DNA of 63,588 bases, filler included, from Rhabdomonas costata (Eukaryota): the NCBI GenBank assembly GCA_019059605.1. It is 40 parts of 40 records of this genome, joined end to end, with 100 filler letters (N's around TTAATTAATTAA, not from the genome) between each part and the next. Parts side by side here need not be neighbours in the genome. Positions count along the whole stretch, not along the records: positions 31,847 to 33,337 come from JAHMHO010014592.1; positions 33,438 to 34,929 come from JAHMHO010014593.1; positions 35,030 to 36,521 come from JAHMHO010014594.1; 37 more parts are not named here. The stretch is one strand, 5' to 3'. Of this stretch, positions 1-36,521 are shown one piece after another (the first letter of the stretch is position 1; every line of letters begins with the position of its first letter). The notes under the pieces are model-generated. The model saw only the letters and a program-made list of their open reading frames with translations, did no database searches and was not told the origin of the DNA. The translations under genes were made by a program, and so were the position numbers.

Positions 1-469
1 GGGGGTGTTGGGCTACTGAAGATTGCAAGATGTTGGATGAGATGAAAGAAAATTCCCGCATTGAAAGGGCTCTCAGCTTCGGGGCGATCAACACAGTATT
101 TCAAGCATCCCAAAATTGCAGAAAGAACCAGCGGTGGTGGTACTGTGTGCTCTGGACCAGAGGAGAACAGGCGCGTGTGGGAGGTTCGAAGGTTCAGGGT
201 AATATCACCGTGGACACCGGGAATTGTCACAGTGTGATGCAAGGGTTTTGTGACAAAACAGGAACACTTCCCTTCACCTTACAGGTATTTGGGAGAAAAA
301 ACAGTTCTCCCGGATGTAATCACCAATCTGGTTAGCTACATATACAAAGTGGGGTCACAACAAACCCTTGCAACCCTATTTGTTTTTTTTAACATTTCTT
401 AAATTGTTTGTAAAATTTGTTCTTTAAAAATTGTTTAATGATTTCTAAAAATTTTTTTCAAACATTTAT

Positions 470-629
470 GCAAACTTTATTAGAGGGTTAAGCAGAAGCA
501 GGCCTGGGGTCTTTTGTACATACAGCAGGCCTCCCGAAACGCTGGGTGGCCGGTCCTTGAGGTTGAGGACATTTTTTGTACATTTGTACATTTTTTCAAA
601 CATCAGCGCAAACTTTAATAGAGGGTTAA
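470..629 (+). repeat. 22-bp direct repeat pair
   Basis: gcaaactttattagagggttaa (470-491) and gcaaactttaatagagggttaa (608-629) match at 21/22 positions. Confidence 0.8.
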
Positions 630-33054: not shown

Positions 33055-35250
33055 CTGTGGAAGCGAATGTTGAGACGGTCCAGTTTGCAAAGAGCTCGAT
33101 GAAAGCGGAACGGATGCTTGAACTGGGCGAGCCAACTTGGATTGTTTTACATAAAAAATGCCGGGGAGTCACCAGCAAAGCCCCACTGTGCAGTTGAACT
33201 GGAAGCACCCCGCCAGATTTACTGGTCTTTCCCAGATCACCAAGCAGGAGGATAGGCAGGGAAGGAGGGACGCTGAAACCACGCCCTTGAAACTCTCGTA
33301 TATCATACACTCGACCGTAATATAATACCCACAACCCNNNNNNNNNNNNNNNNNNNNNNNNNNNNNNNNNNNNNNNNNNNNTTAATTAATTAANNNNNNN
33401 NNNNNNNNNNNNNNNNNNNNNNNNNNNNNNNNNNNNNGTTGGTGGGGTGTCACCTCTCCACCAAATCCTCTGAGGCGGTGTGCCTTTCACGCTGAGGTCC
33501 TAGTCCGTCACATGAAGCATGCGTAGTGTTTCAGCAAATGGCATGCGGAGTGCTGTATGAGTAGGATGTCTGCAGAATGCCCGAGTCCTAGGGAGTGCTT
33601 GACAATGATACATGAGGTGTGTCCCCGAAGCAGCCGACCGTTTCAGAGAGACCTGGTCTGCTGTGGACATTGCCTTGATTTTTTGTCCAATTATCTCGCG
33701 CATCTTTGCACTTTATTTTGTAAAGAATCAGAGTCTTGAGACAGTACTTTGTCCACTACTAGCACCATTTAGTTTTATTCGGTTTTAAACCTCATTTACC
33801 CAGCCACCCACCGGCATGAAACCATCCCAAGCGGATGATGCAATATTGCAGCCAGTGCCCGCCAGGGTAAAAGTAGAGCCGACACAGGCCGCTCCAGCGT
33901 TGTCTTCTGAGACACTTACAACATGTCCTTCGTCCACACCGGCAGCTCCGGTGTCTTTGAGGTATCTACAGTGTTGGAATCGTCCGCTACGATGTTCCGA
34001 TGCTCCGATAAACACTTTTCCTTGCTGTCCTCTGGAGCTTAAGAATCTTTCATCAGTGCGGACATTGTGCGTGAAGCAGGCTAAAAATCATTGCCTTTAA
34101 AGGCACAGATTCAATTCAAGGTCGAGAATATTAATATAGATAGCAACGCACTAAGTTCGCTTGCAAGGTAAGATAGGTTAGTTACAGGTGAGGCTTTTGT
34201 TGTGTGTGATTGAAAATTATCTTCCCATTGCGTTGGGATATTATTTCCTGCATAAAGTAAACCATTTTATTAACTGGGTTGAGAGGGCAGTGCAATTTAG
34301 GATTTGAAAGAAGCTTACTACTGTTCGGGTTTCAAAAGCAATCGGTAGTTCAGTACCATCTCTCACACACTCACTTAATATTTCTGATGATATACATAAC
34401 AAACAAATGAATGTCACTGAGACCGCTCAGGAACGTGTCGTTAGCCTGAGTCAACCGCTCTCGTGATAGGAACCCATCAGGCTGCTCCATAGACGTGTTC
34501 TGTGCAAGAGTCTTAAACTCTGGTGGTTAAATGACCACCGTCGCCGCGTGTTTTGACATGTATAGTGCATTACATGTGGAATTTGCCTCTGGAGAACATG
34601 CGCTCATTACCACAGACGTGGATTTTACCCTACAAACAGGCATTTATTGACGCACTGACCAGTTTTTGGGAGCGCAAGCACCACATATCGGTTGTAGCTG
34701 GAGTAATTGATCTCAACTACAGAGAAAATATAAATGTCTTGCTGTTAAACCACGGAATGATGGACTATAGCGTAAAGGAGCGTAATATTGTGGTACAATT
34801 GCTGTTGTAAAACGTTGCGACATCTACCGTGAGCTTGGTTCACAACTCCATGGATTGTGCGAGGTTTTTGAACCCCATAATGCTCCTGCCTCCTGGTGTT
34901 TTATAGCAGCTAACCACAGAAGTTAGAGANNNNNNNNNNNNNNNNNNNNNNNNNNNNNNNNNNNNNNNNNNNNTTAATTAATTAANNNNNNNNNNNNNNN
35001 NNNNNNNNNNNNNNNNNNNNNNNNNNNNNTGTAAAAAAAATTATTAATGTATATGTTTACATATTTTTTTTGTAAAACAATAAAATATTTTATAAAAAAG
35101 ATTATTGATTTCCCAATGTTTCATGAACCATAATATGCGCGCATACATAGTCAATATCAAAGTTAATGACATATACAATGACATAGTTAGTCACATAGTG
35201 ACTAACATAATTAATGACGACATTGGGGCTGTGGAAATAAGGATTTTTAT

Positions 35251-35290
35251 AAATTTTATTTTTAGATATTTAATATTAAAAATAAAATTT
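35251..35290. terminator. AT-rich hairpin like a Mimiviridae transcript 3'-end palindrome
   Basis: Perfect 14-bp arms aaattttattttta (35251-35264) and taaaaataaaattt (35277-35290), with a partly self-complementary loop, in the intergenic DNA of the AT-rich contig. Confidence 0.45.
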
Positions 35291-35418
35291 TTGTATCAGT
35301 AATAAGATATTAAAAAATGTATTTTTACATATAATTTAATATTTTAAAATACATGGTCTATATTCTCTTTATTTCACAGCCCAATGATTATTTAAAATTC
35401 AGAATTACACATTCAAAT

Positions 35419-35426
35419 AAAATTGA
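35419..35426 (+). promoter_or_regulatory. AAAATTGA octamer (Mimiviridae early-promoter motif)
   Basis: Exact AAAATTGA ending 61 nt upstream of the ATG at 35488. No Shine-Dalgarno before the ATG (context tcaacaATG). Confidence 0.6.
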
Positions 35427-35487
35427 AATTTTAAATGTTTATGATATAAAATAAAGAATAATAAGTATTTAATATCTTAAATCAACA

Positions 35488-36521
35488 ATGTCTAAAGTGA
35501 AGAATGATCAAGATCTCAAGAAACTATTTCATTCCATTCATGATTATATTCGAAATCAGGAAGCTTATTTTGGAATGATGGCCTTGAAGATATTTAATGT
35601 ATTGTATGCTTTGAAATTACTTGATCCACTTATTACTAATAAAAAACCATTTGAATATAAAGAAGATGGTGTTTGGAAGATACACGTATTTTCTGATTTT
35701 TGTTCATTTACATCATTAGTAAAAAAGTTAGAAACAAAAAATGATCAAAAAGTAAATATATCTCTAATATTAAAAGACATTTTAAATGAAATTTGTAGTA
35801 AACCGGGATTACGTGATACTATTTTTTATGAGATTCCTGATGAAATTAAAACGAATACTGTTGCTCATATAGTAAAAGAATTAGATCGAATTGATTATGA
35901 TGCAGATATAGGAGGAAAAATTTACGAATATTTTATTGGTCGAGATCAACGAGCAATCTCTGAACTAGGGGCTTTTTTTACAAATAGGCCTTTTATTAAA
36001 TTCATGATGAAAAAATTAAATCCTAAAATAAATAAAAAAAGAGAAATACCGTCATTCATGGACCCATTTGGAGGATCTGGTGGATTTCCAATTATGTATG
36101 TCCGACATTTACAAAAACAATCAAAAAATATAAACTGGAAAGAACAAATTAATAATTTATATCTTTATGATAACAATATAGATGTTGTTAAATCTGCAAG
36201 AATTGAATTATTAGCATTAACTGGACATATTCCTTATAATTTCAGTAAAAGACATTCATTTTATGAAAATATTGAAGAAAAAGTCGATTATATCTTTACT
36301 AATCCGCCATATGGTGGAGATAAGAAAACCGAGAAAATGAAACTATTGGATTGCAATGATCAAATAAAATCAATTGGATTAAAAAATAATAAAGTTGTAT
36401 TGCCTGGCGATAACAAAGAAAATCTATCAATGCAGTTAATGATGGCATTATTAAAGGATGAAGGAATTTGTTGTGTTGTTATGAAAGAAGGAATATTTTT
36501 CGATAATAAGTACAAAAAAAC
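35488..36521 (+). CDS. Type I restriction-modification HsdM-like N6-adenine DNA methyltransferase (3'-truncated), probably giant-virus derived
   Basis: Intronless ORF of >340 codons in DNA of roughly 20-25% GC (by eye). Motifs: GKIYEYF, GAFFTNR (motif X), DPFGGSGGF (SAM-binding motif I), TNPPY (catalytic motif IV), LKDEGICCVV. Confidence 0.9.

Follow-up and report, generated by a model that had tools for sequence, protein, structure and literature searches.

A DNA methylase gene of probable giant-virus origin in the Rhabdomonas costata assembly

Introduction

Whose DNA is a short, strongly AT-rich contig found among contigs of far higher GC content in a eukaryotic assembly, and what might its single DNA methylase gene do? 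We addressed this for one contig of Rhabdomonas costata (assembly GCA_019059605.1), lying within a window of 63,588 nucleotides, filler included, i.e., the whole stretch of DNA analyzed here, which consists of 40 contigs of 1,486–1,512 bp each with spacers of N/TTAATTAATTAA between them. The first-pass annotation had read this contig as a fragment of a Mimiviridae-like giant virus carrying a Type I restriction-modification (R-M) methyltransferase. Here, we evaluate that reading against a bacterial source, a smaller mobile element, and a decayed nuclear insertion, and examine what the relatives of the methylase suggest about its role.

Results

A single contig of foreign composition

Across the window, GC content was 0.454–0.568 in 39 contigs versus 0.245 in the contig of interest, which is thus the sole strongly AT-rich one, as annotated, and close to the median of 0.253 for the first 79 giant-virus loci carrying relatives of its gene. 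Translated similarity to giant-virus loci (tblastx) was likewise restricted to this contig (1 of 40), and the other 39, none of which matched, were rejected as viral candidates. The contig comprises intergenic DNA followed by the opening 344 codons of one gene, and the features listed at first pass were all recovered where they had been placed (Table 1). No NCLDV hallmark gene was visible over its mere 1.5 kb.

Table 1. Features of the AT-rich contig, in positions of the whole window.
Feature	Position	Strand	Details and basis
Contig of foreign composition	35030..36521	.	separate, 1,492 bp, GC 0.245 (contig map)
Small ORF, doubtful gene	35105..35302	+	65 aa from TTG 35105; 59 aa from ATG 35123
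Perfect 9-nt palindrome GTTAGTCAC-ATA-GTGACTAAC	35186..35206	.	direct reading
Perfect AT hairpin, candidate transcript-end signal for upstream transcription	35251..35290	.	14-nt stem, 12-nt loop
AAAATTGA octamer, candidate Mimiviridae-type early promoter	35419..35426	+	starts 69 nt, ends 62 nt before ATG
HsdM-type N6-adenine DNA methyltransferase gene, 5' part, 344 codons	35488..36521	+	ORF, Pfam, relatives, trees
GAFFTNR, proline-free clade form of HsdM 'G.[FY][FY]TPR'	35968..35988	+	residues 161-167, alignments
Motif I (SAM binding) DPFGGSGGF	36061..36087	+	residues 192-200, direct reading
Motif IV (catalytic) NPPY	36301..36312	+	residues 272-275, direct reading

An intact HsdM-type methylase frame

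The methylase frame runs from ATG 35488 to the contig end without a stop codon, its truncation corresponding to the assembly break, and encodes 344 residues; the start is backed by alignment to the N-terminus of P0122, the closest relative (see below). Competing ORFs of at least 30 aa overlapping the coding stretch are all short, 32–51 aa. Members of the N6_Mtase family carry a motif I of the form D/E-x-F-x-G-x-G followed by a catalytic motif IV, NPPY/F, and both are present in the window protein in the required order, with G196, S197, G198, G199 and F200 invariant across our alignment (A1). Together with a Pfam N6_Mtase match (PF02384; E 3.1e-17, with a score of 63.3 bits where the cut-off is 20.4), DPFGGSGGF and NPPY bear out the annotation as an HsdM-type N6-methyltransferase. 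This match spans residues 139–340, corresponding to profile positions 3–191 of 311, i.e., the catalytic domain is incomplete and runs ~100 residues further in relatives. The best solved-structure matches (PDB) were Type I M subunits, and none of the NCBIfam HsdM models scored above cut-off for the window protein. An N-terminal H..H..RN pattern (H15, H18, R22, N23) is conserved as well.

The state of this gene bears on whether the contig could be an old, decaying endogenous insertion of giant-virus DNA in the host nuclear genome, its methylase a functionless relic. Such insertions are common in protist and algal genomes, and the contig belongs to an assembly of nuclear-like DNA. However, the frame is intact over 344 codons while other frames break every 30–51 codons, the catalytic motifs are all retained, the composition is unameliorated (24.5% GC vs ~50%), and neither contig end carries a host-like flank, which together make a relic very unlikely.

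A proline-free motif separates the viral clade from bacterial HsdM

In place of the bacterial G.F.TP form, the window protein reads GAFFTNR, a departure already remarked upon at first pass that proved to be a true clade marker. The proline was found in 11 of 12 prokaryotic comparators, none of 25 giant-virus sequences, and one of 14 metagenomic relatives. Where the window protein has N, the 25 giant-virus sequences have D (18), N (4) or S (2), with no match at this position in the remaining one. Motif IV was similarly partitioned, with NPPY in 25 of 25 giant-virus rows and NPPF in 10 of 12 prokaryote rows.

Relatives lie on giant-virus contigs and apart from prokaryotes

In an exhaustive search (1,029 matches), the closest relative was P0122, a metagenomic protein of 843 aa with 65% identity (E 2.2e-125). 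Two IMG/VR scans returned 95 and 92 relatives on giant-virus contigs, 29–40% identical over residues 1–344 with E values down to 1e-71; contigs named GVMAG hold 46 of 79 loci (a count made from names). A first scan of 185,579 prokaryote species genomes yielded no relatives, and a second prokaryote scan yielded 30, each 24–29% identical and aligned from residues ~83–140 to ~340. Among the matches listed, plasmid relatives were 23.5–27.5% and phage relatives 24–25% identical. For prokaryotes, plasmids and phages, E values reached 3e-17 to 5e-18 at best, and most of the alignments were confined to the catalytic core.

We then evaluated the placement of the window protein in a prokaryote-rooted tree of 52 rows, a quick LG+G4 inference with SH-aLRT as sole support. 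The 12 prokaryote rows formed one separate side (SH-aLRT 99), while the window protein and P0122 paired at 100 and nested within a 39-row clade (99) otherwise made up of giant-virus contigs and context-less metagenomic proteins. Three giant-virus loci (L113, L114 and L117) branched below this pair and 22 above it, the node uniting it with the crown clade having a support of 93; a first tree had placed the pair outside the clade of all viral loci then known. The pair forms a long separate branch, joined by no sequenced virus. Records whose relatives branch on either side of the window protein contain NCLDV major capsid genes. Taken at the level of sequence, alignments and trees show the methylase gene to belong to a clade of single-chain DNA methylases of giant-virus contigs.

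These results weigh on the possibility that the contig comes from an AT-rich bacterium, i.e., an endosymbiont, a Mollicute, a member of the Rickettsiales or Bacteroidota, or a culture contaminant, with an ordinary Type I HsdM. The fold and motifs of the window protein are those of HsdM, strongly AT-rich bacteria are known, and relatives are labelled at source as 'type I restriction-modification system DNA methylase subunit'. The ESM Atlas neighbors of the window protein are also bacterial HsdM clusters; because these reflect fold-level features and not phylogeny, we set them aside for the question of origin. Against this, the prokaryote, plasmid and phage matches at 24–29% identity fall short of both the metagenomic (65%) and the giant-virus ones (29–40%), the TPR proline is missing, and NPPY stands where most prokaryote rows have NPPF. 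The comparators included two likely candidates for such a source, the alphaproteobacterial endosymbiont L101 and the Mycoplasmopsis plasmid L082, and both proved distant. The gene start is also unlike a bacterial one, as it follows 458 non-coding nucleotides and lacks a Shine-Dalgarno site, direct reading agreeing with the first-pass annotation that no purine run of that kind occurs in the 20 nt before the ATG. Rather than nesting among HsdM of AT-rich bacteria, the outcome set against a viral origin at first pass, the window protein lay outside the prokaryote HsdM clade with its nearest members at 24–29% identity, so the protein half of that test did not count against a viral origin. Overall, the bacterial explanation is largely refuted by the phylogeny, leaving it exceedingly improbable, and the window protein is, as far as these comparisons indicate, not bacterial.

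Genomic context of the relatives

All relatives with visible context were on contigs classed as viral by IMG/VR, many of them 50 kb to 1.15 Mb long or part of giant-virus bins. Genes for ribonucleotide reductase, an SNF2 helicase and a fused mRNA capping enzyme were found in the flanks of relatives. Major capsid protein (MCP) was present in two of the four large viral records examined, with three NCLDV MCP matches on the same 123-kb contig as one relative (L045) and four in a complete 672-kb 'giant virus bin' with another (L117). The two partial viral records (32% and 43% complete) had no match to MCP or A32, which is uninformative given their partial state. Two metagenome scans for the genomic context of P0122 found nothing, and the longest contig carrying it is 26.5 kb.

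This missing context leaves some room for a smaller element (a virophage, polinton-like virus or transpoviron-like episome), or an AT-rich organelle or plasmid, that acquired a methylase of giant-virus type. Virophages and similar mobile elements are AT-rich and can have promoter motifs in common with the giant viruses they depend on. Context is lacking for the whole branch of the window protein and P0122, the longest P0122 contig being only 26.5 kb, and context-less metagenomic proteins make up the basal grade between the viral clades. Yet the relatives that do have context sit on IMG/VR viral contigs with NCLDV capsid, capping-enzyme and ribonucleotide reductase genes near, and none was seen on an identifiable small-element contig, as judged without virophage or polinton-like virus markers. 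An organellar version is further opposed by Rfam, which gave no matches over the whole window and hence no organellar RNA genes. We consider such a smaller element, organelle or plasmid very unlikely.

Taken as a whole, the contig thus very probably derives from the genome of a nucleocytovirus of Mimiviridae/Imitervirales type that belongs to a barely sampled lineage. The giant-virus, Mimiviridae-like origin put forward at first pass therefore gains support from tree nesting, from capsid genes in records of the flanking clades, and from an upstream octamer that recurs across the family (see below). Since a methylase of this type has so far been found only in giant viruses, giant-virus DNA would be present in the sample. 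This DNA may come from a virus infecting the sequenced organism, from one endogenised in it, as by a recent insertion in the host genome, or just as well from a virus of some other organism that was sampled along with it.

Candidate signals upstream of the methylase

The AAAATTGA octamer is present as annotated, separated from the ATG by 61 nt. It is described as the early promoter of mimivirus and the giant virus CroV in the relevant passage of PMC5294985. Over the whole window the octamer is unenriched (4 found vs 4.27 expected). Of 500 dinucleotide-shuffled versions of the 458 nt upstream, 11 had it by chance within the final 150 nt and 53 had it at any position, i.e., a single octamer near the ATG has a chance expectation of ~2%, which is not negligible. 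Among homologues, AAAATTGA was found within 150 nt upstream in 20 of 68, and over all ORF-upstream windows of the viral loci in 164 of 624, versus 56 of 624 for its reverse complement, with a peak at −40 to −69. Going by this distribution, the octamer before the methylase ATG fits a family-wide pattern.

The AT hairpin reported farther upstream was also retrieved, its arms (35251–35264 and 35277–35290) being 100% complementary; one of 500 shuffles of the upstream region yielded a perfect stem of 14 nt or longer. Mimiviridae transcript 3' ends depend on hairpins, according to the portion of PMC4402537 that treats them. Some 200 nt separate the hairpin from the contig start on one side and from the ATG on the other, and no convincing gene was seen upstream of it. 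The small ORF, whose 3' end overlaps the hairpin, was rejected as a second viral gene, as it had no relative in the viral loci (best tblastn E 1.6), and blastn matches of the upstream region were short, AT-rich and judged meaningless. Separately, the 9-nt palindrome sits in a locally less AT-rich patch.

Full-length relatives and their neighboring motor gene

Full-length relatives measure 800–1,050 aa, with two HsdS-type recognition domains following the methylase part: N6_Mtase and two Methylase_S stretches were found in seven of seven, P0122 included, and a profile search matched HsdM structures at 6e-34 and HsdS structures with two target recognition domains (TRDs) at 7e-25. These recognition domains are not visible in the window protein because the contig ends at residue 344.

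On giant-virus contigs, the M-S gene almost always has a gene for a superfamily 2 (SF2) motor, or translocase, beside it (38 of 41 viral loci), and the two occur in three gene orders. In its common form, the motor lies downstream of the M-S gene, and the profile of this form matched the Type ISP enzymes LlaBIII (2.7e-39) and LlaGI (2.8e-38) over the ATPase region (motor profile positions 78/145–563). XPB-type helicases matched at only 3e-11, and we thus rejected the neighbor as an A18/XPB-like core transcription helicase. A single-sequence PDB search with the neighbor helicase gave no matches. In Pfam scans of the common-form motors, N-terminal T5orf172 or MUG113 matches were detected in 7 of 40 and a T1R_D3-like match in one of 40, with no N-terminal nuclease family of HsdR type. 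In one complete bin (G003), the motor beside the M-S gene is of a diverged upstream type, and no close motor copy occurs elsewhere in the genome, where the sole match is weak and partial (E 1.6e-14, query residues 2–355). On the contig itself, no motor gene was found in the 458 nt upstream of the methylase ATG, and a co-directional motor-methylase arrangement is therefore absent there. The restriction module is invisible on the contig, and we infer it from relatives only.

Discussion

Based on these observations, a mode of action can be proposed. Early in infection, the viral polymerase would transcribe the gene from the candidate AAAATTGA element, and the AT hairpin may signal where the preceding transcript ends. 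In the complete protein, of ~840–1,000 aa, the two recognition domains would bind a bipartite DNA target, and the methyl group would be transferred from SAM to adenine N6 via motif I DPFGGSGGF and motif IV NPPY. If the relatives are a guide, the methylase would partner an adjacent protein of ~700 aa with an SF2 translocase core, whose common form shows, in a minority of members, matches to GIY-YIG-clan Pfam families at its N-terminus. Such a pair would be a two-gene R-M-like module, predicted from the same relatives to mark viral DNA as self and to attack unmarked host, virophage or rival-virus DNA.

The contig may more tentatively be viewed as a first glimpse of a deep giant-virus lineage, hitherto unsampled and associated with this eukaryote, together with an apparently undescribed, Imitervirales-wide two-gene early R-M system combining an HsdM-HsdS fusion, a Type ISP-style translocase and a GIY-YIG-like nuclease; we regard this composite reading as possible, though less likely than its converse. 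We found no paper joining 'Type ISP' and 'giant virus', and supplementary gene tables may already list the pair.

For this assembly, the contig points to giant-virus DNA in the sample. Should the link to the host be borne out, it would also provide a virus-host lead for a protist group, from a virus divergent enough, with only 65% identity to the nearest known protein, to represent a lineage not yet sampled. An active restriction system, if the pair is one, would bear on host-DNA degradation and on defence against virophages and competitors, and if the two-gene reading is true, ATP-driven translocating restriction would be a regular weapon of eukaryotic viruses.

Comparison with known systems

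The window protein most resembles the giant-virus HsdM-HsdS clade (compared here with the ChlorV sequence left out), with which it shares the N-terminal H..H..RN, a T[DNS]R motif, motif I of the DPFGGSGGF type, NPPY and tree placement, as well as an AT-rich context and the upstream octamer seen in part of the members. It differs in being only 29–40% identical to viral-contig homologues, as opposed to 65% to P0122, and, unlike most crown-clade members, lacks a Lys-rich insertion of ~40–60 aa after NPPYGGDK.

With bacterial HsdM (the M subunits of EcoKI, StySJI and EcoR124), the window protein shares fold family, catalytic motifs and PF02384, and the recognition part of its relatives matches HsdS structures with two TRDs. 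Unlike classical Type I R-M, however, the relatives carry M and S in one polypeptide rather than as separate HsdM, HsdS and HsdR, the TPR proline is replaced in the window protein, identity to classical HsdM is only ~25%, the partner motor of the relatives best matches Type ISP and not HsdR, and the carrier is a eukaryotic virus.

Type ISP enzymes unite a nuclease, an SF2 motor, a coupler, a methylase and a recognition domain in one polypeptide, and the nuclease of LlaGI is Mrr-type. The module of the relatives (seen outside the window) has comparable parts, i.e., a nuclease-like N-terminus, an SF2 motor, an adenine methylase and target recognition, with the neighboring gene matching the ATPase region of LlaGI and LlaBIII (PDB 5ffj, 4xqk). 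Unlike in Type ISP, motor and methylase are two genes in the relatives, there are two recognition domains instead of one, the methylase half is HsdM/HsdS-like, with LlaGI and LlaBIII missing from its PDB matches, and the N-terminal domain of the motor matches T5orf172/MUG113 rather than the Mrr type.

Among giant viruses, one Type I-like gene is mentioned in passing in the section of PMC13196603 concerned. As far as the pertinent part of PMC7253447 goes, the R-M systems and orphan methylases of chloroviruses, Marseilleviridae and other giant viruses for which a target is predicted are all type II; like the methylase type described here, they are prokaryote-derived, with a proposed role in host-DNA degradation or virus competition. 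In contrast to those type II enzymes, the present methylase has a Type I architecture and, judging from its relatives, a translocase partner.

A probable giant-virus contig in the Rhabdomonas costata assembly

The window is not a single locus: it comprises 40 contigs of 1,486-1,512 bp each, with N/TTAATTAATTAA spacers between them. The contigs differ by at most 26 bp in length, and the window appears to have been cut from a highly fragmented assembly sorted by length, so that adjacent contigs are uninformative on linkage. One contig (35030-36521) has a GC content of 0.245 over its entire length versus 0.454-0.568 in the other 39, which lack clean long ORFs and look like the non-coding-rich nuclear DNA of a eukaryote. 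When all 40 were compared by translated search with ~1.1 Mb of collected giant-virus DNA, similarity was found for the AT-rich contig and for 0 of the 39 others. Rfam gave no matches anywhere in the window.

A methylase gene of the HsdM type, belonging to the giant-virus clade, begins on the AT-rich contig; its 5' part is intact and includes motifs I and IV. The ORF matches Pfam N6_Mtase (E = 3.1e-17; 63.3 bits, cut-off 20.4), among solved structures it is closest to Type I M subunits (best E = 1.2e-10), and none of the NCBIfam models reached its cut-off for the ORF protein. Competing ORFs across the same coding stretch encode 32-51 aa. DPFGGSGGF, NPPY and GAFFTNR all lie where the first-pass annotation had read them, and its remark that GAFFTNR replaces the usual bacterial G.F.TP turned out to describe a clade marker: the "TPR" proline of HsdM is found in 11 of 12 prokaryote rows versus 0 of 25 viral rows, and in 1 of 14 metagenomic rows.

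Features of the AT-rich contig and of the loci and proteins related to its methylase (A1, alignment of methylase relatives; A4, alignment of motor proteins; P-numbers, related proteins; L-numbers, loci holding relatives; G004, viral record holding L045; M-S, HsdM-HsdS fusion gene)
Feature	Location	Strand	Remarks
HsdM-type methylase ORF, 5' part	from ATG 35488, 344 codons, off contig end	+	ORF scan
Octamer AAAATTGA	35419-35426		61 nt between octamer and ATG
Hairpin, perfect 14-nt stem	arms 35251-35264 / 35277-35290		
Small ORF, sole candidate gene for hairpin			59-65 aa; no relatives in the collected viral loci
Palindrome GTTAGTCAC-ATA-GTGACTAAC	35186-35206		perfect; flanked by three AATGAC repeats
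Less AT-rich patch	35160-35220		
Cys/His module	N-termini, A1 columns 1-100, e.g. P0006, P0007, P0013, P0025, P0047; P0124 C-terminus		~100 aa
Lys/Glu-rich insertion	A1 columns ~460-540		~40-60 aa
M-S plus motor gene, examples	L015:9662-15023; also L004, L016, L045; upstream form L012, L113, L114, L115, L117		
Motor C-terminal region	A4, ~last 80 residues; L113:7599-9899		no Pfam match
Motor gene with one internal stop codon	L047:3940-6024	-	
Three tandem NCLDV MCP matches	G004:C1:67258-70674		

Relatives and phylogenetic placement of the methylase

A word-indexed search with the ORF protein returned 137 matches, all metagenomic and at ~31-46% identity except for one short local match above this range, while an exhaustive search returned 1,029 matches at E ≤ 0.001. 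The top exhaustive match was a metagenomic protein of 843 aa (P0122; 65% identity, E = 2.2e-125), and all remaining matches were at ≤47% identity, save a 124-aa fragment at 70%. A family-profile scan of IMG/VR yielded 95 relatives. The 79 loci retained from these align with virtually the full query at 29-40% identity, and by contig name 46 of them are on GVMAG contigs. Median GC of the 79 loci was 0.253, and the flanks of relatives encode a fused mRNA capping enzyme, a SNF2 helicase and ribonucleotide reductase. Across prokaryotes (one genome per species, 185,579 species), a first set of patterns detected 0 relatives and looser patterns detected 30; each was 24-29% identical, and the alignments were confined to residues ~83-140 to ~340. 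Among the matches listed, plasmids reached 23.5-27.5% identity (55 records, all <60%) and phages 24-25% (46 records).

In a first tree (90 rows, three plasmid sequences as outgroup), the window protein paired with P0122 (SH-aLRT 99) within a grade of context-less metagenomic proteins, apart from the clade that held every viral locus collected up to that point. Given this position, we profiled the grade and rescanned IMG/VR, which added six loci, including two on contigs of 1,152,313 bp (L113) and 349,569 bp (L114). In a second tree (52 rows, quick search, LG+G4, SH-aLRT support only), the 12 prokaryote rows formed one side (99), and the window protein and P0122 paired at 100 inside a 39-row clade (99), with L113, L114 and L117 below the pair and 22 viral loci above it. 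The node uniting the pair with these 22 loci received 93. NCLDV major capsid genes were present in the records searched from both sides of the pair: four in the complete 672-kb record with L117, labelled "a giant virus bin", and three within 3.5 kb on the 123-kb contig of L045, ~15 kb from the methylase gene. Neither MCP nor A32 was found in the two partial viral records searched earlier. The central proposal of the first-pass annotation, a giant-virus-derived, Mimiviridae-like and non-bacterial fragment, is well supported, and we consider this origin of the contig likely. The methylase itself is a new, divergent member beside known relatives.

Signals upstream of the methylase gene

Both upstream signals described in the first-pass annotation, an octamer identical to a Mimiviridae early-promoter motif and an AT hairpin, are present. 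To gauge how often they would occur by chance, the 458 nt before the gene were dinucleotide-shuffled 500 times: one shuffle produced a perfect stem of 14 nt or longer, 11 placed the octamer in the last 150 nt, and 53 contained it at any position. The accompanying caution that the octamer alone carries little weight was justified, its window-wide count being at chance level (4 vs 4.27 expected). Among homologues, the octamer lies upstream of 20 of 68 non-duplicate genes with a full 150-nt window, against an expected rate of 0.034 per window from the background in these loci; in most of the 20 its start is 41-57 nt from the ATG. More broadly, upstream of all viral-locus ORFs encoding ≥150 aa, the sense octamer was found in 164 of 624 distinct windows versus 56 of 624 for its reverse complement, with a peak at -40 to -69; the octamer on the contig starts at -69. 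One review (PMC5294985) places this motif ahead of 45% of mimivirus genes and 35% of CroV genes and describes it as a marker of early genes. From these counts, its position and its published early-promoter role, we consider the octamer good supporting evidence.

Palindromic hairpins are described as transcript ends in Mimiviridae in one report (PMC4402537). The hairpin on the contig is real, but there is no convincing gene for it to terminate. A separate palindrome, located in a less AT-rich patch, may be a binding site or a remnant.

Fusion architecture and a partner motor gene in relatives

All seven full-length relatives tested, including P0122, show N6_Mtase followed by two Methylase_S stretches, and their profile matches HsdM (StySJI M, 6e-34) and HsdS (7e-25) structures. 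By this domain order and these matches, the family consists of HsdM-HsdS fusions in a single chain of ~800-1,050 aa, of which the window holds the first 35-40%. Many giant-virus members have an additional Cys/His module (Y-x-C-x-I-C ... H-H-K-x-H ... K-H), which looks like a C2H2-type zinc finger and is absent from the window protein and P0122. Most crown-clade members also have a Lys/Glu-rich insertion directly after NPPYGGDK, which splits their match to the window protein into two stretches in the exhaustive search; it is missing from the window protein, P0122 and the basal grade.

Directly after the methylase gene, a gene of ~700-750 aa lies tail to tail in 43 of 55 viral loci (non-duplicate, gene complete and ≥2.5 kb of sequence beyond it), at a median gap of 57 nt. 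These downstream partners contain ResIII (37/40) and Helicase_C (28/40), with an N-terminal T5orf172 (5/40) or MUG113 (2/40), both members of the GIY-YIG nuclease clan. In the L015 protein, Y7, R31 and E79 are conserved positions of this GIY-YIG-like N-terminal part. In all five loci examined that seemingly lacked this partner, an SF2 ATPase of 681-771 aa was encoded directly upstream on the same strand, and the one in L113 has its C-terminal region in common with the downstream form (hhalign probability 98.5%). Using both motor forms as queries, we repeated the count on the 41 non-duplicate loci that extend ≥2.5 kb to either side: the motor adjoins the M-S gene in 38, in three gene orders (31 downstream convergent, 6 upstream co-directional, 1 upstream opposite), and is absent within 1.5 kb in the other 3. 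Adjacency that survives a change in gene order is a classical sign of a functional pair; gene order is nevertheless common among related genomes, so such a pairing is something we infer. On the AT-rich contig, the 458 nt upstream of the methylase gene hold no motor gene, which excludes the co-directional order there.

The strongly conserved Trp/Tyr/Cys-rich C-terminal region common to both motor forms could be where the methylase docks. One motor gene, in L047, may be a pseudogene or reflect a sequencing error.

Comparison with known systems

The full protein would recognise a bipartite site via its two recognition domains and make N6-methyladenine, with early expression from the octamer, and may form a restriction-modification-like pair with an ISP-like nuclease-translocase, as the gene pair in relatives suggests. 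This pair is a more interesting lead than the finding in the window itself. In one published account (PMC7253447), giant-virus methylases with a predicted target are all type II. Mimiviridae, a helicase, a methyltransferase and type I restriction are all mentioned in one paper, that on ChlorV, and a search of main texts found none joining "Type ISP" and "giant virus". Among characterised enzymes, Type IIB BsaXI is a weaker match to the profile of full-length relatives than the HsdM and HsdS structures. For the motor, a core transcription helicase is argued against by an XPB/RAD25-type match of only 3e-11, compared to 2.7e-39 and 2.8e-38 for the Type ISP enzymes LlaBIII and LlaGI, which match the downstream-partner profile across the motor region.
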